A stretch of 13,073 nucleotides of DNA from the IMG/VR virus record IMGVR_UViG_2695420863_000001; one strand, 5' to 3'. The position numbers and the translations under genes are program-made. Within the stretch, counting starts at the first letter, position 1. Each line of letters begins with the position of its first letter. Positions 1-11,769 of this stretch are shown here, in pieces. The stretch comes from a virus. Lineage: Duplodnaviria; Heunggongvirae; Uroviricota; Caudoviricetes. Under the pieces are notes generated by a model. The model searched no databases. It had not been told where the DNA came from and saw only the letters and a list, made by a program, of their open reading frames with translations.

Positions 1-479
1 AGGGAATGCCCGTTCTGCGAGGCGGTGGCAAGGGTAATGAGGTGCTTTATGACTCTGCCGCCGTTATAAGATGGTATGCCGAAAGGGATGCTGAAATTGA
101 GAACGAAAAGCTGCGCCGGGAAGTTGAAGAACTGCGGCAGGCCAGCGAGACAGATCTCCAGCCAGGGACTATTGAGTACGAACGCCATCGACTTACGCGT
201 GCGCAGGCCGACGCACAGGAACTGAAGAATGCCAGCGAAACAGGTGAGGTAATTGACACTGCATTTGCGACTTATGCCTTGTCGAAATTAACTGGGGAAG
301 TTGGAGCAATCATTGATAGTCTTCCACTTGCGATCTGTCGACAGTTTCCTGGCATGGAAAAACGGTATCAGGACTTCATTAAGATGGAGGTCAGTAAAGC
401 ATTTATTCGAGCTTACCAGATCTCAGATAACATTCCAGATATGGCTGAAAGGTATATCAAGGATAATCAGCGAAGTTAA
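1..479 (+). CDS. nu1: Terminase small subunit Nu1, 5'-partial (reading frame enters the window at base 3; stop TAA at 477-479). The N-terminal ~100 residues seen here match lambda Nu1 closely; the last ~55 residues are diverged.
   Basis: Translation MPVLRGGGKGNEVLYDSAAV...AERDAEIENEKLRREVEELRQ matches lambda Nu1 as I recall it; ORF track 6..479. Confidence 0.9.
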   Translation, partial: GMPVLRGGGKGNEVLYDSAAVIRWYAERDAEIENEKLRREVEELRQASETDLQPGTIEYERHRLTRAQADAQELKNASETGEVIDTAFATYALSKLTGEVGAIIDSLPLAICRQFPGMEKRYQDFIKMEVSKAFIRAYQISDNIPDMAERYIKDNQRS

Positions 480-535
480 AACAAATGAAACCATAGGTAG
501 GAAGAGTGCTTAGGTGGTTCTTTGTTGCTTAAAAG

Positions 536-554
536 TCGCCAGTAAAACTGGCGA
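536..554. terminator. Possible bidirectional intrinsic terminator: 7-bp stem tcgccag/ctggcga with 5-nt loop, T-rich on both sides (plus strand tagattttatttg downstream; minus strand cttttaag downstream).
   Basis: Inverted repeat read directly from sequence, lying between the nu1 stop (479) and the stop of the minus-strand gene (586). Confidence 0.35.
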
Positions 555-585
555 TAGATTTTATTTGTCAAAAGCATTTGACCTT

Positions 586-1491
586 TTAAGGTAGTGGTAC
601 TATGGATATTTTTCTGTCGTTCCCAAATGAACTTTTAAATAATTTCGCTCTTGGATACATTTTAACTAGTGATGCGACTTCATCGAACTCGCTGGCATCA
701 AAAAGAGGACCAAGTATTACAGATTTTAACTCAAAAGGGTGAAATTTTAAGTCGCTATATTGACCAGTGCTATTTGGCCTAGCGTAGGTTGAAATTCTCC
801 ACTCTCTTTCATATGCCCATTCTTCTGTTTTTATGAATATTATCTCATTATTGATATATTCAATTGACTTATTGTCTGGCATGAAAAGCAACTCGGCCAT
901 CCCTTCAGCAGTGTGAGTTAGAGGCATTTCATCTGTGTATTTCATAGGTTTGGCTATTAACCAAGCGCTATCCAGAAAGTCTACACAATCAAATTCGATA
1001 ACTATACCTTTATATTTATCGGCATAGTGATTCCACATAGGAGTGATTATAGGGCTCTCAGATAAACACAAAATCCTTCTGTTATTAAGCATTCCTCGCC
1101 AGACATCTTTCATTTCTTGTATTGCCGCAGGAGCGCCAATCCCAACTGGTGGAATGTTTACCATTTCTTGAAATCTTTCAATTAATCCTGCGGGTATGCC
1201 TAAAGGAAATGACTTTTGGAAATCACTTAGCATTGTTCTAATTCTAGGGTTTAAATTTTGTATGTCTTCTCTGGGGGTAATCAACTCCGCTATTAACTTG
1301 CGGGCTAAAGCTTTGCCAATATTAATTTCGTTAATACCAGGCATAACTTCTCTTGGAACATCAAAAGGGTCATTAAATAGGACCGGAGAACTCCATCTAA
1401 GGCTGCATGAATCAAGAACAATCTTCGCGGTATTCAACGACATATACTTATAAAATGTTGAGCGTTCATGCATTCTGTTGGGTGAGCGCAT
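586..1491 (-). CDS. Hypothetical 301-aa protein, DUF2971-like by motif (N-terminal FYKY...FNDPFD, C-terminal YEREWR). Sole gene of an AT-rich insert that replaces the phage head module. Candidate accessory or defence gene.
   Basis: Long uninterrupted minus-strand ORF in a visibly AT-rich segment; RBS-like aagagga about 5 nt upstream of the ATG at 1491; motif resemblance to DUF2971 is from memory and not verified. Confidence 0.8.
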   Translation of the reverse strand: MRSPNRMHERSTFYKYMSLNTAKIVLDSCSLRWSSPVLFNDPFDVPREVMPGINEINIGKALARKLIAELITPREDIQNLNPRIRTMLSDFQKSFPLGIPAGLIERFQEMVNIPPVGIGAPAAIQEMKDVWRGMLNNRRILCLSESPIITPMWNHYADKYKGIVIEFDCVDFLDSAWLIAKPMKYTDEMPLTHTAEGMAELLFMPDNKSIEYINNEIIFIKTEEWAYEREWRISTYARPNSTGQYSDLKFHPFELKSVILGPLFDASEFDEVASLVKMYPRAKLFKSSFGNDRKISIVPLP

Positions 1492-1528
1492 AGATTCCTC
1501 TTGTTAAATGAGTGATGGTTTTCATCCA

Positions 1529-1549
1529 TGTATTGCACGTTGTATTGCA
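1529..1549. promoter_or_regulatory. Direct repeat tgtattgca-cgt-tgtattgca in the upstream region of the minus-strand cargo gene; possible operator or promoter element.
   Basis: Exact 9-bp direct repeat spaced by 3 nt, about 40-60 bp upstream of the cargo gene start; no strong sigma70 -35/-10 pair could be assigned by eye. Confidence 0.25.
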
Positions 1550-1625
1550 TTCAAGGATTTTCCATTTCAATTCTATAGCTAAAACGTAATCAAATCATTC
1601 ACATCCTTTCATATTTGACTCATGT

Positions 1626-2416
1626 AGCCGAAGCATGAGGTGAATCCGCAGATGACCCTGCGTCGCCTGCCGGATGAAGATCCGCAGAATCTGGCGGACC
1701 CGGCTTACCGCCGCCGTCGCATCATCATGCAGAACATGCGAGACGAAGAGCTGGCCATTGCTCAGGTCGAAGAGATGCAGGCAGTTTCTGCTGTGCTTAA
1801 GGGCAAATACACCATGACCGGTGAAGCCTTCGATCCGGTTGAGGTGGATATGGGCCGCAGTGCGGCGAACAACATCACACAGTCCGGTGGTACGGAGTGG
1901 AGCAAGCGTGACAAGTCCACGTATGACCCGACCGACGATATCGAAGCCTATGCGCTGAACGCCAGCGGAGTGGTGAATATCATCGTGTTTGATCCGAAAG
2001 GCTGGGCGCTGTTCCGTTCCTTCAAAGCCGTCAAGGAGAAGCTGGATACCCGTCGCGGCTCTAATTCCGAGCTGGAGACAGCGGTAAAAGACCTGGGCGA
2101 AGCGGTGTCCTATAAGGGGATGTATGGCGATACGGCGATCGTCGTGTATTCCGGACAGTACGTGGAAAACGACGTCAAAAAGAACTTCCTTCCGGACAAC
2201 ACGATGGTGCTGGGGAACTCTCAGGCACGCGGTCTGCGCACCTATGGCTGCATTCAGGATGCGGACGCACAGCGCGAAGGTATTAACGCCTCTGCCCGCT
2301 ACCCGAAAAACTGGGTGACCACCGGCGATCCGGCGCGTGAGTTCACCATGATTCAGTCAGCACCGCTGATGCTGCTGGCTGACCCTGATGCGTTCGTGTC
2401 CGTACAACTGGCGTAA
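1626..2416 (+). pseudogene. E: Major capsid protein E, 5'-truncated remnant. Lambda-like sequence begins about 1626; the in-frame ORF is 1640..2416 (258 of ~341 codons); the upstream frame hits TAG at 1625-1627.
   Basis: Translation NPQMTLRRLPDEDPQNLADPAYRRRRIIMQNMRDEELAIAQVEEMQ...FVSVQLA matches the C-terminal ~3/4 of lambda gpE; the N-terminal ~83 codons are absent. Confidence 0.9.
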
Positions 2417-2457
2417 TCATGGCCCTTCGGGGCCATTTTCTCTCTGTGGAGGAGTCT

Positions 2458-2853
2458 ATGACGAAAGATGAACTGATTGCCCGTCTTCAGGTGCTGGGTG
2501 AGCAACTGAACCGTGATGTCAGCCTGACGGGGACGAAAGAAGAACTGGTGCTCCGTGTGGCAGAGCTGGAAGAGGAGCTTGATGACACGGATGACGCTGC
2601 CGGTCAGGACACATCTGTCAGCCCGGAAAATGCGCTGACCGGACATGAAAATGAGGTTGTATCAGCGCAGCCGGATACCGTGACTGATACGGCTGATCTG
2701 GTCACGGTTGTGGCACTGGTGACGCTGCATACTGATGCACTTCACGCCACGCGGGATGAGGCTGTGGCATTTGTGCTGCCGGGAACGGCGTTCCGTGTCT
2801 CTGCCGGTGTGTCAGCTGAAATGACAGAGCGCGGCCTGGCCAGAATGCAATAA
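2458..2853 (+). CDS. FI: FI protein (DNA packaging / head-tail assembly accessory). Start ATG at 2458 preceded by ggagg.
   Basis: MTKDELIARLQVLGEQLNRDVSLTGTKEEL... matches lambda gpFI; the upstream in-frame ATG at 2419 is less likely (no RBS; lambda start conserved at 2458). Confidence 0.9.
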   Translation: MTKDELIARLQVLGEQLNRDVSLTGTKEELVLRVAELEEELDDTDDAAGQDTSVSPENALTGHENEVVSAQPDTVTDTADLVTVVALVTLHTDALHATRDEAVAFVLPGTAFRVSAGVSAEMTERGLARMQ

Positions 2854-2864
2854 CGGGAGGCGCT

Positions 2865-3218
2865 GTGGCTGATTTCGATAACCTGTTCGATGCTGCCATT
2901 GCCCGCGCCGATGAAACGATACGCGGGTACATGGGAACGTCAGCCACCATGACATCCGGTGAGCAGTCCGGCGCAGTAATACGTGGTGTTTTTGATGACC
3001 CTGAAAATATCAGCTATGCCGGACAGGGCGTGCGCGTTGAAGGCTCCAGCCCGTCCCTGTTTGTCCGGACTGATGATGTGCGGCAGCTGCGGCGCGGCGA
3101 CACGCTGACCATCGGTGAGGAAAACTTCTGGATAGACCGGATTTCGCCGGATGATGGCGGAAGCTGTCATCTCTGGCTTGGGCGGGGCGTACCGCCTGCC
3201 GTTAACCGTCGCCGCTGA
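2865..3218 (+). CDS. FII: FII head-tail joining protein; GTG start with gggagg RBS.
   Basis: MADFDNLFDAAIARADETIRGYMGTSAT... matches lambda gpFII (117 aa). Confidence 0.92.
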   Translation: MADFDNLFDAAIARADETIRGYMGTSATMTSGEQSGAVIRGVFDDPENISYAGQGVRVEGSSPSLFVRTDDVRQLRRGDTLTIGEENFWIDRISPDDGGSCHLWLGRGVPPAVNRRR

Positions 3219-3229
3219 AAGGGGGATGT

Positions 3230-3808
3230 ATGGCCATAAAAGGTCTTGAGCAGGCCGTTGAAAACCTCAGTCGTATCAGCAGAGCGGCGGTGCCCGGTGC
3301 CGCCGCAATGGCCATTAACCGCGTTGCTTCATCCGCGATATCGCAGTCGGCGTCACAGGTTGCCCGTGAGACAAAGGTACGCCGGAAACTGGTAAAGGAA
3401 AGGGCCAGGCTGAAAAGGGCCACGGTCAAAAATCCGCAGGCCAGAATCAAGGTTAACCGGGGGGATTTGCCCGTAATAAAGCTGGGTAACGCGCGGATTG
3501 TCCTGTCCCGACGCAGGCGTCGTAAAAAGGGGCAGCGTTCAGCCCTGAAAGGTGGCGGCAGCGTGCTTGTGGTGGGAAACCGTCGTATTCCCGGCGCGTT
3601 TATTCAGCAACTGAAACATGGCCGCTGGCATGTCATGCAGCGTGTGGCCGGGAAAAACCGTTACCCCATTGATGTGGTGAAAATCCCGATGGCGGTGCCG
3701 CTGACCACGGCGTTTAAACAGAATATTGAGCGGATACGGCGTGAGCGTCTTCCGAAAGAGCTGGGCTATGCGCTGCAGCATCAACTGAGGATGGTAATAA
3801 AGCGATGA
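3230..3808 (+). CDS. Z: Z tail completion protein.
   Basis: MAIKGLEQAVENLSRIS...HQLRMVIKR matches lambda gpZ (192 aa). Confidence 0.92.
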   Translation: MAIKGLEQAVENLSRISRAAVPGAAAMAINRVASSAISQSASQVARETKVRRKLVKERARLKRATVKNPQARIKVNRGDLPVIKLGNARIVLSRRRRRKKGQRSALKGGGSVLVVGNRRIPGAFIQQLKHGRWHVMQRVAGKNRYPIDVVKIPMAVPLTTAFKQNIERIRRERLPKELGYALQHQLRMVIKR

Positions 3809-4200
3809 AACATACTGAACTCCGTGCAGCCGTACTGGATGCACTGGAGAAGCATGACACCGGGGCGACGCTTTTTGATGGTCGCCCCGCTGTTTTTGAT
3901 GAGGAAGATTTTCCGGCAATTGCCGTTTATCTCACCGGCGCTGAATACACGGGCGAAGAGCTGGACAGCGATACCTGGCAGGCGGAGCTGCATATTGAAG
4001 TTTTCCTGCCTGCTCAGGTGCCGGATTCAGAGCTGGATGCGTGGATGGAGTCCCGGATTTATCCGGTGATGAGCGATATCCCGGCACTGTCAGATTTGAT
4101 CACCAGTATGGTGGCCAGTGGCTATGACTACCGGCGCGACGATGATGCGGGCCTGTGGAGTTCAGCCGATCTGACTTATGTCATTACCTATGAAATGTGA
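3805..4200 (+). CDS. U: U tail terminator protein; start overlaps Z stop (ATGA).
   Basis: [22 protein letters not shown]...LTYVITYEM matches lambda gpU (131 aa). Confidence 0.92.
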
Positions 4201-4207
4201 GGACGCT

Positions 4208-4948
4208 ATGCCTGTACCAAATCCTACAATGCCGGTGAAAGGTGCCGGGACCACCCTGTGGGTTTATAAGGGGAGCGGTGACCCTTATGCGAACCCGCTT
4301 TCAGACGTTGACTGGTCGCGTCTGGCAAAAGTTAAAGACCTGACGCCCGGCGAACTGACCGCTGAGTCCTATGACGACAGCTATCTCGATGATAAAGATG
4401 CAGACTGGACTGCGACCGGGCAGGGGCAGAAATCTGCCGGAGATACCAGCTTCACGCTGGCGTGGATGCCCGGAGAGCAGGGGCAGCAGGCGCTGCTGGC
4501 GTGGTTTAATGAAGGTGATACCCGTGCCTATAAAATCCGCTTCCCGAACGGCACGGTCGATGTGTTCCGTGGCTGGGTCAGCAGTATCGGTAAGGCGGTG
4601 ACGGCGAAGGAAGTGATTACCCGCACGGTGAAGGTCACCAATGTGGGACGTCCGTCGATGGCAGAAGATCGCAGCACGGTAACAGCGGCAACCGGCATGA
4701 CCGTGACGCCTGCCAGCACTTCGGTGGTGAAAGGGCAGAGCACCACGCTGACCGTGGCATTCCAGCCGGAAGGCGCAACCGACAAGAGCTTCCGTGCGGT
4801 GTCAGCGGATAAAACAAAAGCCACCGTGTCGGTCAGTGGTATGACCATCACCGTGAATGGCGTTGCTGCAGGCAAGGTCAACATTCCGATTGTATCCGGT
4901 AATGGTGAGTTTGCTGCGGTTGCAGAAATCACCGTCACCGCCAGTTAA
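4208..4948 (+). CDS. V: V major tail tube protein with C-terminal Ig-like region; start at the ATG at 4208 (lambda start [12 protein letters not shown]), not the upstream ATG at 4178.
   Basis: [31 protein letters not shown]...AEITVTAS matches lambda gpV (246 aa). Confidence 0.92.
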
Positions 4949-4963
4949 TCCGGAGAGTCAGAG

Positions 4964-5386
4964 ATGTTCCTGAAAACCGAATCATTTGAACATAACGGTG
5001 TGACCGTCACGCTTTCTGAACTGTCAGCCCTGCAGCGTATTGAGCATCTCGCCCTGATGAAACGGCAGGCAGAACAGGCGGAGTCAGACAGCAACCGGAA
5101 GTTTACTGTGGAAGACGCCATCAGAACCGGCGCGTTTCTGGTGGCGATGTCCCTGTGGCATAACCATCCGCAGAAGACAAAGCAGCCTTCCATGAATGAA
5201 GCCGTTAAACAGATTGAGCAGGAAGTGCTTACCACCTGGCCCACAGAGGCAATTTCTCATGCTGAAAACGTGGTGTACCGGCTGTCTGGTATGTATGAGT
5301 TTGTGGTGAATAATGCCCCTGAACAGGCAGAGGACGCCGGGCCCGCAGAGCCTGTTTCTGCGGGAAAGTGTTCGACGGTGAGCTGA
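4964..5386 (+). CDS. G: G tail assembly chaperone.
   Basis: MFLKTESFEHNGVTVTLSELSALQRIEHL...SAGKCSTVS matches lambda gpG (140 aa). Confidence 0.92.
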   Translation: MFLKTESFEHNGVTVTLSELSALQRIEHLALMKRQAEQAESDSNRKFTVEDAIRTGAFLVAMSLWHNHPQKTKQPSMNEAVKQIEQEVLTTWPTEAISHAENVVYRLSGMYEFVVNNAPEQAEDAGPAEPVSAGKCSTVS

Positions 5387-5802
5387 GTTTTGCCCTGAAA
5401 CTGGCGCGTGAGATGGGGCGACCCGACTGGCGTGCCATGCTTGCCGGGATGTCATCCACGGAGTATGCCGACTGGCACCGCTTTTACAGTACCCATTATT
5501 TTCATGATGTTCTGCTGGATATGCACTTTTCCGGGCTGACGTACACCGTGCTCAGCCTGTTTTTCAGCGATCCGGATATGCATCCGCTGGATTTCAGTCT
5601 GCTGAACCGGCGCGAGGCTGACGAAGAGCCTGAAGATGATGTGCTGATGCAGAAAGCGGCAGGGCTTGCCGGAGGTGTCCGCTTTGGCCCGGACGGGAAT
5701 GAAGTTATCCCCGCTTCCCCGGATGTGGCGGACATGACGGAGGATGACGTAATGCTGATGACAGTATCAGAAGGGATCGCAGGAGGAGTCCGGTATGGCT
5801 GA
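4964..5802 (+). CDS. T: G-T fusion tail assembly chaperone made by -1 frameshift at 5362-5368; the T-frame part runs ~5367..5802.
   Basis: T-frame translation FDGELSFALKLAREMGRPDWRAMLAGMSSTEYADWHRFY... matches lambda gpT; the lambda G-T frameshift is established biology. Confidence 0.85.
5362..5368 (+). other. Programmed -1 ribosomal frameshift slippery heptamer G_GGA_AAG joining G to T.
   Basis: Heptamer gggaaag sits in the G frame as G GGA AAG; the -1 frame reads on as KVFDGELSFALK..., the T ORF. Confidence 0.85.
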
Positions 5803-8257
5803 ACCTGTAGGCGATCTGGTCGTTGATTTGAGTCTGGATGCGGCCAGATTTGACGAGCAGATGGCCAGAGTCAGGCGTCATTTTTCCGGTACGGAAAGTG
5901 ATGCGAAAAGAACAGCGGCAGTCGTTGAACAGTCGCTGAGCCGACAGGCGCTGGCTGCACAGAAAGCGGGGATTTCCGTCGGGCAGTATAAAGCCGCCAT
6001 GCGTATGCTGCCTGCACAGTTCACCGACGTGGCCACGCAGCTTGCAGGCGGGCAAAGTCCGTGGCTGATCCTGCTGCAACAGGGGGGGCAGGTGAAGGAC
6101 TCCTTCGGCGGGATGATCCCCATGTTCAGGGGGCTTGCCGGTGCGATCACCCTGCCGATGGTGGGGGCCACCTCGCTGGCGGTGGCGACCGGTGCGCTGG
6201 CGTATGCCTGGTATCAGGGCAACTCAACCCTGTCCGATTTCAACAAAACGCTGGTCCTTTCCGGTCATCAGTCGGGTCTGACGGCAGATCGTATGCTGGT
6301 CCTGTCCAGAGCCGGGCAGGCGGCAGGGCTGACGTTTAACCAGACCAGCGAGTCACTCAGCGCACTGGTTAAGGCGGGGGTAAGCGGTGAGGCTCAGATT
6401 GCGTCCATCAGCCAGAGTGTGGCGCGTTTCTCCTCTGCATCCGGCGTGGAGGTGGACAAGGTCGCTGAAGCCTTCGGGAAGCTGACCACAGACCCGACGT
6501 CGGGGCTGACGGCGATGGCACGCCAGTTCCATAACGTGACGGCGGAGCAGATTGCGTATGTTGCTCAGTTGCAGCGTTCCGGCGATGAAGCCGGGGCATT
6601 GCAGGCGGCGAACGAGGCCGCAACGAAAGGGTTTGATGACCAGACCCGCCGCCTGAAAGAGAACATGGGCACGCTGGAGACCTGGGCAGACAGGACTGCG
6701 CGGGCATTCAAATCCATGTGGGATGCGGTGCTGGATATTGGTCGTCCTGATACCGCGCAGGAGATGCTGATTAAGGCAGAGGCTGCGTTTAAGAAAGCAG
6801 ACGACATCTGGAATCTGCGCAAGGATGATTATTTTGTTAACGATGAAGCGCGGGCGCGTTACTGGGATGATCGTGAAAAGGCCCGTCTTGCGCTTGAAGC
6901 CGCCCGAAAGAAGGCTGAGCAGCAGACTCAACAGGACAAAAATGCGCAGCAGCAGAGCGATACCGAAGCGTCACGGCTGAAATATACCGAAGAGGCGCAG
7001 AAGGCTTACGAACGGCTGCAGACACCGCTGGAGAAATATACCGCCCGTCAGGAAGAACTGAACAAGGCACTGAAAGACGGGAAAATCCTGCAGGCAGATT
7101 ACAACACGCTGATGGCGGCGGCGAAAAAGGATTATGAAGCGACGCTGAAAAAGCCGAAACAGTCCGGCGTGAAAGTGTCTGCGGGCGATCGTCAGGAAGA
7201 CAGTGCTCATGCTGCCCTGCTGACGCTTCAGGCAGAACTCCGGACGCTGGAGAAGCATGCCGGAGCAAATGAGAAAATCAGCCAGCAGCGCCGGGATTTG
7301 TGGAAGGCGGAGAGTCAGTTCGCGGTACTGGAGGAGGCGGCGCAACGTCGCCAGCTGTCTGCACAGGAGAAATCCCTGCTGGCGCATAAAGATGAGACGC
7401 TGGAGTACAAACGCCAGCTGGCTGCACTTGGCGACAAGGTTACGTATCAGGAGCGCCTGAACGCGCTGGCGCAGCAGGCGGATAAATTCGCACAGCAGCA
7501 ACGGGCAAAACGGGCCGCCATTGATGCGAAAAGCCGGGGGCTGACTGACCGGCAGGCAGAACGGGAAGCCACGGAACAGCGCCTGAAGGAACAGTATGGC
7601 GATAATCCGCTGGCGCTGAATAACATCATGTCAGAGCAGAAAAAGACCTGGGCGGCTGAAGACCAGCTTCGCGGGAACTGGATGGCAGGCCTGAAGTCCG
7701 GCTGGAGTGAGTGGGAAGAGAGCGCCACGGACAGTATGTCGCAGGTAAAAAGTGCAGCCACGCAGACCTTTGATGGTATTGCACAGAATATGGCGGCGAT
7801 GCTGACCGGCAGTGAGCAGAACTGGCGCAGCTTCACCCGTTCCGTGCTGTCCATGATGACAGAAATTCTGCTTAAGCAGGCAATGGTGGGGATTGTCGGG
7901 AGTATCGGCAGCGCCATTGGCGGGGCTGTTGGTGGCGGCGCATCCGCGTCAGGCGGTACAGCCATTCAGGCCGCTGCGGCGAAATTCCATTTTGCAACCG
8001 GAGGATTTACGGGAACCGGCGGCAAATATGAGCCAGCGGGGATTGTTCACCGTGGTGAGTTTGTCTTCACGAAGGAGGCAACCAGCCGGATTGGCGTGGG
8101 GAATCTTTACCGGCTGATGCGCGGCTATGCCACCGGCGGTTATGTCGGTACACCGGGCAGCATGGCAGACAGCCGGTCGCAGGCGTCCGGGACGTTTGAG
8201 CAGAATAACCATGTGGTGATTAACAACGACGGCACGAACACCCGACGTCGGGACTGA
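5795..8257 (+). pseudogene. H: Tape measure protein H, copy A: H codons 1-815 followed by 5 junk codons (TRRRD) and a stop, caused by a frame-breaking junction at 8239/8240. Truncated relative to the ~853-aa lambda gpH.
   Basis: MAEPVGDLVVDLSLDAARFDEQMARVRRHF... matches lambda gpH up to ...NNHVVINNDGTN, then departs; the expected continuation GQIGP... is seen only in copies B and C. Confidence 0.85.
6768..7975 (+). repeat. Direct repeat, copy 1 of ~1.2 kb; near-identical to 10181..11388 (offset 3413 bp).
   Basis: Identical minus-strand ORF translations in the track (6837..7268 = 10250..10681; 6971..7501 = 10384..10914; 7447..7965 = 10860..11378) plus by-eye comparison. Confidence 0.85.
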
Positions 8258-10116
8258 TGGCGATGGCGCGCCAGTTCCGTAACGTGACGGCAGAGCAGAT
8301 TGCGTATGTTGCACAGCTGCAGCGTTCCGGAGACGAGGCCGGGGCATTGCAGGCGGCGAACGATATCGCCACGAAAGGCTTTGATGAGCAGACCCGTCGC
8401 CTGAAAGAAAACATGGGAACACTGGAGACCTGGGCGGATAAAACAGGGAAGGCATTCAAATCGATGTGGGATGCCATTCTGGATATCGGTCGTCCTGAAT
8501 CCTCAGCGGATATGCTCGCCAGTGCGCAGAAGGCATTTGATGAGGCGGATAAAAAATGGCAGTGGTACCAGAGCCGGAGCCAGCGCCGGGGAAAGACCTC
8601 CTCTTTTCGTGCGAACCTTCAGGGGGCATGGGATGACAGGGAAAATGCCCGTCTGGGTCTGGCAGCGGCCACGCTGCAGTCGGATATGGAAAAAGCCGGT
8701 GAACTGGCGGCAAGGGACCGGGCTGAGCGTGAGGCGTCACAGCTGAAGTATACCGGAGAGGCGCAGAAGGCGTATGAGCGCCTGCAGACGCCGCTGGATA
8801 AATATACCGCCCGTCAGAAAGAGCTGAATAAGGCCCTGAAAGACGGAAAAATCCTGCAGGCGGATTACAACACGCTGATGGCGTCGGCAAAAAAGGATTA
8901 TGAATCGACGCTGAAAAAGCCGTCCGGTGTGAAGGTGTCTGCCGGTGAGCGCCAGGAAGACCGGGCGCATGCAGCCATGCTGGCGCTTGAAACCGAGCTC
9001 AGGACGCTGGAAAAACACAGCGGTGTGAATGAGAAAATCAGCCAGCAGCGCCGGGATTTATGGGAAGCGGAAAATCAGTATGTGGTCCTGAAAGAGGCCG
9101 CCACGAAACGGCAGTTATCTGAGCAGGAAAAATCCCTGCTGGCTCATGAGAAAGAGACGCTGGAGTACAAACGCCAGCTGGCTGAGCTGGGAGACAAGAT
9201 TGAACACCAGAAGCGGCTGAATGAGCTGGCACAGCAGGCGGCGCGGTTTGAACAGCAGCAGAGCGCGAAGCAGGCGGCAATCAGCGCAAAAGCCCGCGGC
9301 CTCACTGACCGTCAGGCGCAGCGGGAGTCGGAAGAGCAGCGCCTTCGTGAGGTGTACGGTGATAATCCGGCTGCGCTGGCGAAGGCCACATCTGCACTGA
9401 AGAACACCTGGTCTGCGGAGGAGCAGCTTCGTGGAAGCTGGATGGCCGGGATGAAGTCCGGCTGGGGCGAGTGGGCGGAAAGTGCGACGGACAGTTTTTC
9501 GCAGGTTAAAAACGCGGCCACGCAGACCTTTGACGGTATTGCACAGAATATGGCAGCGATGCTGACCGGCAGCGAACAGAACTGGCGGGGATTCACCCGT
9601 TCGGTGCTCTCCATGCTGACAGAAATTCTGCTTAAGCAGGCAATGGTGGGGATTGTCGGGAGTATCGGCAGCGCCATTGGCGGGGCTGTTGGTGGCGGCG
9701 CATCCGCGTCAGGCGGTACAGCCATTCAGGCCGCTACGGCGAAATTCCATTTTGCAACCGGAGGATTTACGGGAACCGGCGGCAAATATGAGCCAGCGGG
9801 AATTGTTCACCGCGGTGAATTCGTCTTCACGAAGGAGGCAACCAGCCGGATTGGCGTGGGGAATCTCTACCGGCTGATGCGCGGCTATGCCACCGGCGGT
9901 TATGTCGGTACACCGGGCAGCATGGCGGACAGCCGGTCGCAGGCGTCCGGGACGTTTGAGCAGAATAACCATGTGGTGATTAACAACGACGGCACGAACG
10001 GTCAGATAGGGCCACAGGCACTGAAGGCTGTTTATGACGTAGCCCGTAAGGCGGCAATGGATGTTGTGACCGGGCAGATGCGCGATGGTGGTCTGTTCTC
10101 CGGAGGTGGACGATGA
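8240..10116 (+). pseudogene. H: Tape measure H, copy B: internal fragment from about H codon 233 (TDPTSGLTAMARQF) to the native C-terminus, out of frame with copy A. Diverged allele with a strongly divergent central block and small indels.
   Basis: ORF 8257..10116 translation parallels copy A from ARQFRNVTAEQIAYVAQLQRSGDEAGALQAAN... and ends with the lambda H C-terminus ...QMRDGGLFSGGGR; lacks the H N-terminus. Confidence 0.8.
9621..10116 (+). repeat. Direct repeat of the H 3' end; apparently identical to 11274..11769 (offset 1653 bp).
   Basis: Identical track ORFs 9653..9877 and 11306..11530; by-eye comparison of flanking bases. Confidence 0.8.
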
Positions 10117-10187
10117 AAACCTTCCGCTGGAAAGTGAAACCCGGTATGGATGTGGCTTCGGCCCCTTCTGTAAGAAAGGATGATTAA
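10113..10187 (+). pseudogene. M: M tail protein fragment: first 22 codons of M (MKTFRWKVKPGMDVASAPSVRK), then the junction into H copy C and a stop after 2 further codons.
   Basis: Bases 10113-10179 match the start of the intact M at 11766-11832; the ATG overlaps the copy-B stop exactly as in the intact H/M junction. Confidence 0.8.
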
Positions 10188-11388
10188 GGCAGAGGCTGCG
10201 TTTAAGAAAGCAGACGACATCTGGAATCTGCGCAAGGATGATTATTTTGTTAACGATGAAGCGCGGGCGCGTTACTGGGATGATCGTGAAAAGGCCCGTC
10301 TTGCGCTTGAAGCCGCCCGAAAGAAGGCTGAGCAGCAGACTCAACAGGACAAAAATGCGCAGCAGCAGAGCGATACCGAAGCGTCACGGCTGAAATATAC
10401 CGAAGAGGCGCAGAAGGCTTACGAACGGCTGCAGACACCGCTGGAGAAATATACCGCCCGTCAGGAAGAACTGAACAAGGCACTGAAAGACGGGAAAATC
10501 CTGCAGGCAGATTACAACACGCTGATGGCGGCGGCGAAAAAGGATTATGAAGCGACGCTGAAAAAGCCGAAACAGTCCGGCGTGAAAGTGTCTGCGGGCG
10601 ATCGTCAGGAAGACAGTGCTCATGCTGCCCTGCTGACGCTTCAGGCAGAACTCCGGACGCTGGAGAAGCATGCCGGAGCAAATGAGAAAATCAGCCAGCA
10701 GCGCCGGGATTTGTGGAAGGCGGAGAGTCAGTTCGCGGTACTGGAGGAGGCGGCGCAACGTCGCCAGCTGTCTGCACAGGAGAAATCCCTGCTGGCGCAT
10801 AAAGATGAGACGCTGGAGTACAAACGCCAGCTGGCTGCACTTGGCGACAAGGTTACGTATCAGGAGCGCCTGAACGCGCTGGCGCAGCAGGCGGATAAAT
10901 TCGCACAGCAGCAACGGGCAAAACGGGCCGCCATTGATGCGAAAAGCCGGGGGCTGACTGACCGGCAGGCAGAACGGGAAGCCACGGAACAGCGCCTGAA
11001 GGAACAGTATGGCGATAATCCGCTGGCGCTGAATAACATCATGTCAGAGCAGAAAAAGACCTGGGCGGCTGAAGACCAGCTTCGCGGGAACTGGATGGCA
11101 GGCCTGAAGTCCGGCTGGAGTGAGTGGGAAGAGAGCGCCACGGACAGTATGTCGCAGGTAAAAAGTGCAGCCACGCAGACCTTTGATGGTATTGCACAGA
11201 ATATGGCGGCGATGCTGACCGGCAGTGAGCAGAACTGGCGCAGCTTCACCCGTTCCGTGCTGTCCATGATGACAGAAATTCTGCTTAAGCAGGCAATGGT
11301 GGGGATTGTCGGGAGTATCGGCAGCGCCATTGGCGGGGCTGTTGGTGGCGGCGCATCCGCGTCAGGCGGTACAGCCATTCAGGCCGCT
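10181..11388 (+). repeat. Direct repeat, copy 2; near-identical to 6768..7975.
   Basis: As above. Confidence 0.85.
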
Positions 11389-11769
11389 ACGGCGAAATTC
11401 CATTTTGCAACCGGAGGATTTACGGGAACCGGCGGCAAATATGAGCCAGCGGGAATTGTTCACCGCGGTGAATTCGTCTTCACGAAGGAGGCAACCAGCC
11501 GGATTGGCGTGGGGAATCTCTACCGGCTGATGCGCGGCTATGCCACCGGCGGTTATGTCGGTACACCGGGCAGCATGGCGGACAGCCGGTCGCAGGCGTC
11601 CGGGACGTTTGAGCAGAATAACCATGTGGTGATTAACAACGACGGCACGAACGGTCAGATAGGGCCACAGGCACTGAAGGCTGTTTATGACGTAGCCCGT
11701 AAGGCGGCAATGGATGTTGTGACCGGGCAGATGCGCGATGGTGGTCTGTTCTCCGGAGGTGGACGATGA
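10181..11769 (+). pseudogene. H: Tape measure H, copy C: fragment from about H codon 324 (LIKAEAAFKKADD) to the native C-terminus. Copy-A-like in its 5' ~1.1 kb and copy-B-like in its last ~0.4 kb.
   Basis: ORF 10180..11769; reverse-strand ORFs in the track are identical between A and C at a constant offset of 3413 bp and between B and C at offset 1653 bp. Confidence 0.8.

Follow-up and report, generated by a model that had tools for sequence, protein, structure and literature searches.

A DUF2971 gene at the attR end of an 11capE-type phage satellite encodes a probable single-gene anti-phage ADP-ribosyltransferase

The window analysed here is a stretch of 13,073 nucleotides from a virus of the class Caudoviricetes, and the gene under study is a 301-aa ORF with an ATG start on its minus strand (586..1491, from the window ORF list). 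By sequence comparison, this gene is the last gene of a helper-embedded 11capE-type satellite, where it adjoins attR, and is not the cargo of a head-deleted prophage. It belongs to the DUF2971 family, encodes a protein with a predicted ADP-ribosyltransferase (ART)-like fold and is the only cargo that the satellite carries in its 3' accessory slot. We consider the product to be a probable single-gene anti-phage ADP-ribosyltransferase, that is, a good but unsurprising defence candidate.

The satellite and its insertion site

The plus strand of the window carries, in order, a Nu1-type terS (1-479), the 3' part of capsid gene E and the genes FI, FII, Z, U, V, G/T, H, M and L. All credible genes around 586..1491 are on this strand, in agreement with the original prediction that the minus-strand ORF runs opposite to its neighbours. 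The statement that the DUF2971 gene is the only gene between the Nu1-like gene and a 5'-truncated E is literally true within the window. Over its left 8.2 kb, the window matches E. coli ECA64 with 99.4% identity. In this strain the upstream prophage genes nohD, terL, W, portal, protease, D and the first 82 codons of E are intact, and are followed by an integrase, an AlpA-type regulator, Icd-like, DUF4222, primase and SSB genes, a second major capsid gene, a second decoration gene, an HTH regulator, terS, the opposite-strand DUF2971 gene and then the rest of E.

In ECA64 and six sister variants, the satellite (~10.6 kb) is site-specifically inserted in E. The helper head genes and the 5' 82 codons of E are kept upstream in each of these satellite-bearing E. 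coli prophages inspected (7/7), one of which has a frameshifted portal gene and one of which (ECA64) carries the DUF2971 module. The order int-alpA, primase, capsid/decoration is seen in ECA64, which has the identical module, and in Enterobacter; the window itself starts in terS. Among the matches listed, both integrase and cargo were found for six E. coli genomes, in which the integrase lies 9.3-11.6 kb upstream of the DUF2971 gene. It had been proposed that the gene stands in place of the phage head module, in a defective prophage that lost its head genes yet keeps the cargo. Neither proposal is supported by these comparisons, in which the left-hand "Nu1" is the terS of the satellite and the helper head genes lie beyond it. 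The satellite setting was hidden from the original prediction because the window begins 72 nt inside the satellite terS.

The att core AGCCGAAGCA (1626..1635) is the attR crossover block and falls in codons K-P-K-H of E; the same 10 bp are present at attL (L001 about 11054-11063). Joining attL and attR at this core restores ...GYVKPKHEVNPQ..., which is the lambda E sequence. A generic direct-repeat search missed the 10-bp core, and it was found by reading both junctions. The 3' fragment of the helper major capsid gene E (1626..2416, plus strand) is without its N-terminal ~82 codons and continues lambda E with PKHEVNPQM...; RefSeq labels it "major capsid protein, missing N-terminus", and the 5' fragment is located at L001 10820-11065. 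A doubled motif, TGTATTGCA-CGT-TGTATTGCA (1529..1549, plus strand), is presumed to be an integrase arm site. Its end is 81 bp from the att core centre, and this spacing is shared by all seven E. coli variants despite unrelated surrounding DNA. For the 11capE HE-PICI, Tommasini, Mageeney & Williams (2023; PMC10111431) described an identity block of 10 bp in capsid gene E together with a gene order resembling that of PICIs, and they identified a doubled motif tgTGTATTGCantgTGTATTGCa located 81 ± 2 bp from the att centre as HE-PICI-specific. Both 11capE-type features, the 10-bp block in E and a doubled TGTATTGC motif 81 ± 2 bp from the att centre, were found here.

The satellite's own terS (Nu1 family; 1..479, plus strand) has its 5' end cut by the window and starts 72 nt before it (L001 19928-20479). 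Based on comparison with NohD of the helper, its first 102 aa are almost identical to that protein, and its last 76 aa, which are AT-rich, are about 45% identical. With such a hybrid TerS, packaging could be redirected in favour of the satellite. Upstream of the satellite terS, the helper cos region is present as a 94% copy.

At the other end of the window, the tape-measure gene H (5795-11769) is disrupted, with junctions near 8240 and 10180. Positions 1-8239 are collinear with ECA64, 8240-10180 is an extra, diverged partial copy of H (85-87% nucleotide identity) and 10181-11652 repeats 6768-8239 at 99.5%, so that the disrupted gene consists of three ORFs of 820, 619 and 529 aa. No contiguous H-to-H' junction was present in any of 5,426 complete E. 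coli genomes. Either a unique recombination event involving lambdoid prophages or an artefact of assembly may explain this junction.

The DUF2971 gene and its predicted product

Base composition sets the DUF2971 gene apart from the morphogenesis genes E, FI, FII, Z, U and V: its GC content is 0.377 and its GC3 0.331, compared to 0.54-0.59 and 0.56-0.70, respectively, in those genes. The AT-biased codon choice noted in the original prediction is thereby confirmed. Horizontal acquisition of the cargo is supported. The compositional break is also real, but the AT-rich segment, put at ~1.15 kb, is longer and spans from about 240 to about 1625. Its onset is already within the upstream Nu1/terS gene, where the GC content is 0.56 at 6-239 and 0.41 at 240-479. 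Other features read from the letters were also found as described: a good ribosome-binding site (Shine-Dalgarno GAGG at 1497..1500, minus strand, 5 nt 5' of the ATG at 1491-1489), the motifs FYKY, LFNDPFD and YEREWR (at residues 13, 38 and 227, respectively) and the lack of an obvious transmembrane segment, which is unlikely in this protein as the top 19-residue Kyte-Doolittle mean is 1.32.

An intra-satellite promoter for the gene would be confined to 1492..1625, a stretch with a GC content of 0.32 that is also the attR arm of the satellite. In a promoter scan, no sigma-70 consensus was found upstream of the gene; the best candidate by eye is weak (ATGATT-17-TAGAAT). The doubled motif is only 38 bp from the DUF2971 start codon. 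Because the promoter region overlaps the attR arm, integration state or integrase binding might affect expression of the cargo. Between the convergent terS and DUF2971 genes is a G+C-rich hairpin, GTCGCCAGT-AAA-ACTGGCGAT (535..555), which has a 9-bp stem and flanking T/A runs and was scored on the plus strand. It is likely a terminator and possibly a bidirectional one, and its use on the minus strand would be an extrapolation from the plus-strand score. A terminator in this position would shield the antisense cargo gene from helper late transcription. An Rfam scan of window positions 1-2500 produced no match. An antisense ORF (1196..1453) was discarded as it lies wholly within the conserved DUF2971 gene.

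Several profile searches place the protein in a known family. The DUF2971 assignment of the original prediction was borne out by an HMM search: Pfam PF11185 matches residues 152-233 with 40 bits (gathering cut-off 22, E-value: 1e-9), covering positions 1-89 of the 89-position model. All five models of PADLOC PDC-S31 also match, the best being PDLC04990 (E-value: 2.5e-32; protein residues 9-289, model positions 5-246 of 259), as does PHROG 1762 (E-value: 1e-68); a search of NCBIfam with the protein gave no match. Among 5.8 billion proteins searched, homologues form 479 clusters at 90% identity, nearly all with lengths of 295-305 aa and with alignments that start at residue 1. When 1.84 billion 50%-identity representatives were searched with a profile, 657 were recovered at E ≤ 1e-30 and 21,017 at E ≤ 1e-3. 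The dN/dS ratio is 0.135 against the Enterobacter orthologue (88% identity) and 0.082 against the Klebsiella orthologue (71%). With this many clusters and close representatives and such low dN/dS values, the 301-aa ORF is not a chance ORF and, as judged from these ratios, is under purifying selection. Among the matches listed, 29 of the 32 full-coverage E. coli copies are at least 99.7% identical.

The RefSeq entry for this protein, WP_001117802.1, is 252 aa in length and starts at M50 (L001 20586-21344; window 586-1344). In ECA64, the 49 codons 5' of the RefSeq start are open and encode the same protein as the window. The corresponding 49 residues contain the family-invariant K15 and D41, as well as Y16, R32 and S34, which are conserved at 90% or more. 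Because these upstream codons are open, conserved and include family-invariant residues, the 301-aa form appears to be the correct one, and the RefSeq entry is probably N-terminally truncated by 49 residues.

Outside the satellites, related genes are found in a range of contexts. A megablast search of phage genomes with the cargo segment returned nothing, and tblastn against phages returned distant partial DUF2971 matches only. A DUF2971 protein is also encoded in small Vibrio "phage" records (PE003/PE004; 13-15 kb). The tblastn search of plasmids identified many distant DUF2971 paralogues, mostly on Klebsiella plasmids and with 25-30% identity. A distant paralogue, with ~25% identity over ~225 aligned aa, is very frequent on plasmids of Klebsiella, Enterobacter and Escherichia, and 510 plasmid records match. 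Homologues more remote than the satellite orthologues (46-62%) are stand-alone genes in small chromosomal islets, with a HEPN_AbiV gene as neighbour in one case and integrase remnants or toxin-antitoxin genes in others. Across the contexts inspected, DUF2971 has no conserved partner gene. An antitoxin partner was considered and rejected as no neighbouring small ORF is conserved across contexts.

A confident AlphaFold2 model based on a 65-sequence alignment (pLDDT 94.2, pTM 0.86) has a core that is predicted to adopt the ART fold and to be closest to the nucleic-acid-acting enzymes Tpt1/KptA, DarT and Scabin. Other structural likenesses are to Rhs ART toxins and to many classical ART toxins and PARPs. 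The match to the Tpt1 chain (109 residues of the model versus a 120-residue chain) covers the NAD-binding ART lobe only. To this core are added a helical insert of ~85 residues (55-137) and a C-terminal alpha/beta sub-domain (~240-301). Foldseek against the PDB found nothing significant (best E-value: 0.18, with DarT1 ranking third at 0.47), and a sequence-profile search of the PDB gave only spurious helical-repeat matches. The long helical insert and the helices before the ExE strand of the model may account for the Foldseek result.

DUF2971 has previously been assigned to the ARTs as a group with a poorly conserved motif I, a strictly conserved Tyr, an ExE motif and helical inserts (PMC12522546). 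Among 65 relatives of 22-59% identity, K15, D41, W153, Y156, G162, Y185, K221, W225, E230, R232 and G261 are invariant, and E228, R32 and S34 are at least 90% conserved. The ART signature is present, with Y156 of motif II in W-x-H-Y-A (WNHYA) and the motif III ExE as E228-R-E230 in YEREWR; a canonical motif I His/Arg is not evident, and K15 and R32 are candidates for this role. Because the published description combines Tyr with ExE and these residues are conserved as above, YEREWR can be read as the ExE catalytic motif of a Y ... ExE signature, and the initial view that the protein has no nameable catalytic motif no longer applies.

Cargo slot and proposed function

The satellite integrase is present in 175-179 of 5,426 complete E. 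coli genomes, but the AT-rich terS C-terminus and DUF2971 are found in only 32. Backbone homology between variants ends near the terS start (window -144 to -35) and returns 11-34 bp before the att core. Six other E. coli variants were surveyed at this position. The reference, NRG 857C, carries DUF262 and HEPN genes (L010 10037-11753), with matches to NsnA (E-value: 2e-59), PD-T4-2_A (7e-39) and PD-T4-2_B (2e-4). One variant carries a TIR-domain protein (L012 20704-21846; 1.6e-17) and another an AbiJ-like protein (L014 21633-22394; 2.4e-22). In the other three, the occupants (a 311-aa protein; a 438-aa protein; DUF3892 plus a 228-aa protein) have no PADLOC match and could be unrecognised defence systems. 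Most slot occupants are, like the DUF2971 gene, on the minus strand. One sister satellite has an AbiC/AbiP-like gene (L011 13486-14169) in its 5' variable zone after alpA.

The DUF2971 orthologue likewise adjoins attR in satellites of Enterobacter sichuanensis and Klebsiella aerogenes, and in the Klebsiella satellite two unknown genes replace its terS neighbour. As read from these alignments, the attR-proximal slot is an exchangeable cargo hotspot with defence-type content. In agreement with this, accessory genes of PICIs have been placed "after the terS homolog" (PMC10085698), and a passage of PMC11364771 (citing Fillol-Salom et al. 2022) locates the immune systems of PICIs at the 5' or 3' end of the element.

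The original prediction offered defence as a hypothesis. We regard it as the most likely role, as it is supported by the PDC-S31 match, the hotspot location and a validated DUF2971 defence system, Aristaios. With a probability that we put somewhat above even, this is an accessory gene with an anti-phage function, which occupies the 3' cargo hotspot of an 11capE-type HE-PICI within E of a lambdoid prophage and encodes a latent ART that aborts infection. The enzyme would be latent in uninfected cells; we infer this because no antitoxin gene accompanies it. The helical insert (55-137), the C-terminal sub-domain (~240-301) or both could, speculatively, serve as autoinhibitor or sensor. Upon infection by a competing phage, the protein would use NAD+ to transfer ADP-ribose onto DNA, RNA or a component of the machinery for gene expression. 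A nucleic-acid target is suggested because the closest folds all act on DNA or RNA. By analogy with Aristaios, phage transcription and protein synthesis would be shut down and the infection aborted. This would exclude competing phages and protect the lysogen together with its helper prophage and satellite.

A further proposal, which we consider tentative and unlikely, is that the protein is an antitoxin-free, self-regulated nucleic-acid ART (or carries out Tpt1-like NAD+ chemistry on RNA/DNA ends) whose insert or C-terminal sub-domain senses a phage cue, and which is deployed against competitors with the lambdoid helper being spared. Under the same proposal, expression might depend on whether the satellite is integrated or excised, as the upstream region overlaps the presumed integrase arm sites.

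Not all readings of this gene involve defence. It could be an accessory gene of another kind, whose product is an ART effector that is secreted or injected, a role put forward for some DUF2971 proteins of Legionella, or else an enzyme of nucleic-acid repair or NAD metabolism such as a Tpt1-like 2'-phosphotransferase. We find this improbable: the top single structural match is indeed a housekeeping enzyme, but it covers the NAD-binding lobe only, the protein has no hydrophobic segment, no secretion-system genes were seen in the contexts inspected and the phage satellite slot is filled with defence-type genes. A role in the life cycle of the satellite, either as an interference or hijacking factor favouring satellite packaging or as an addiction toxin, seems decidedly improbable. 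The gene is kept beside attR in three genera, travels with the satellite-specific terS C-terminus in E. coli and Enterobacter, and might be expressed according to integration state, given the overlap of its upstream region with presumed integrase arm sites. However, about 145 of the 175-179 elements with the same integrase are without the gene and unrelated cargo fills the slot in the six inspected, which makes the gene dispensable for the satellite; moreover, close homologues occur outside satellites in chromosomal islets, Klebsiella keeps DUF2971 though the terS partner has been replaced, and no antitoxin-like neighbour is conserved.

It is very improbable that the product is a catalytically dead or non-enzymatic ART-like scaffold, or the gene a silent passenger. 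The missing canonical motif I His/Arg, the absence of a significant Foldseek match and the lack of a detected promoter would fit such a view, but they are set against strong purifying selection, the near-identity of the listed full-coverage E. coli copies and the invariance of Y156, E230, K15, D41, K221 and R232 across relatives of 22-59% identity. Least credible is a stand-alone moron retained in a decayed prophage that has lost head genes A to D and the 5' portion of E by deletion. This reading follows from the 13-kb window, which shows a Nu1-like gene, DUF2971 and a 5'-truncated E in succession and stops short of the upstream region. It is opposed by the att core, the doubled motif at the published spacing and the satellite-type terS, all in the window, as well as by the upstream integrase in the six genomes for which it and the cargo were among the matches listed and by the head genes that ECA64 and its six sister variants keep beyond the satellite.

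Relation to known systems

Each layer of this picture has been described before: the Pfam family, the ART prediction (2025), a validated defence member (2024), the PADLOC candidate, HE-PICIs (2023) and end-located immunity in PICIs (2022). The label "undescribed" that was first attached to the gene can no longer be used, as it is a PADLOC candidate in a predicted ART family with one member validated for defence. Three points are modestly new: the occurrence of DUF2971/PDC-S31 among the cassettes at the attR end of 11capE-type satellites, a variant with a full chimeric terS where the reference element is said to lack terS, and the coincidence of the cargo upstream region with presumed integrase arm sites. 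The annotation of the locus is corrected to a satellite splitting gene E instead of a head-deleted prophage, and the RefSeq protein is flagged as being without 49 N-terminal residues. Should a defence activity in E. coli be borne out, the gene would provide a first enterobacterial and genetically tractable member of a family with more than 20,000 representatives at 50% identity, PDC-S31 would pass from PADLOC candidate to validated system, and helper-embedded satellites would, like other PICIs, use the attR-proximal slot as an exchangeable defence cassette.

Aristaios is a 316-aa DUF2971 protein of Lactococcus plasmid pUCCL641 that has been validated as a single-gene abortive-infection system (Grafakou et al. 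2024, PMC11381338). It blocks phage transcription and protein production (PMC11381338, PMC13064643, PMC12967558); no escape mutants exist. Like the E. coli protein, Aristaios is encoded by a single gene, is ~300 aa in length, belongs to Pfam DUF2971, has a predicted ART fold and is located on a mobile element. It comes from a Gram-positive plasmid whereas the E. coli gene is part of an enterobacterial phage satellite, and the two are likened by these features. In the plasmid tblastn search (E ≤ 1), Lactococcus and Aristaios were absent from the top ten genera and from the 40 rows listed, and 37 further genera had matches. PDC-S31 is a PADLOC prediction from genes within BREX, DISARM or type I RM loci (Payne et al., bioRxiv 10.1101/2024.01.29.577857). 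The E. coli protein resembles it in being a single-gene candidate with a near full-length HMM match, but is found in a PICI cargo slot rather than in such loci.

Among ARTs acting on nucleic acids, DarTG pairs DarT, an ssDNA thymidine ADP-ribosyltransferase, with the macrodomain antitoxin DarG, whereas no macrodomain gene is near DUF2971 in the contexts inspected. The DarT models in PADLOC do not match the protein at E ≤ 1, and the DUF2971 protein differs from DarT in its large helical inserts and extra C-terminal sub-domain. Tpt1/KptA is an RNA 2'-phosphotransferase and a housekeeping enzyme that carries an N-terminal RNA-binding lobe and an Arg-His-Arg-Arg tetrad; the DUF2971 model matches its NAD-binding lobe alone.

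The satellite itself is like PICIs in carrying cargo after terS at its 3' end, and like 11capE in its integrase (99.7% nucleotide identity to NRG 857C), the 10-bp core in E, the doubled motif at 81 bp and, as read from ECA64, the order of its genes. The paper describing HE-PICIs (PMC10111431) is without discussion of defence cargo. At the terS position, NRG 857C has only a 64-aa ORF, which has little in common with terS beyond the first ~12 codons. The reference 11capE is said to lack terS and has DUF262 and HEPN in its slot, whereas the variant described here carries a full chimeric terS followed by DUF2971.
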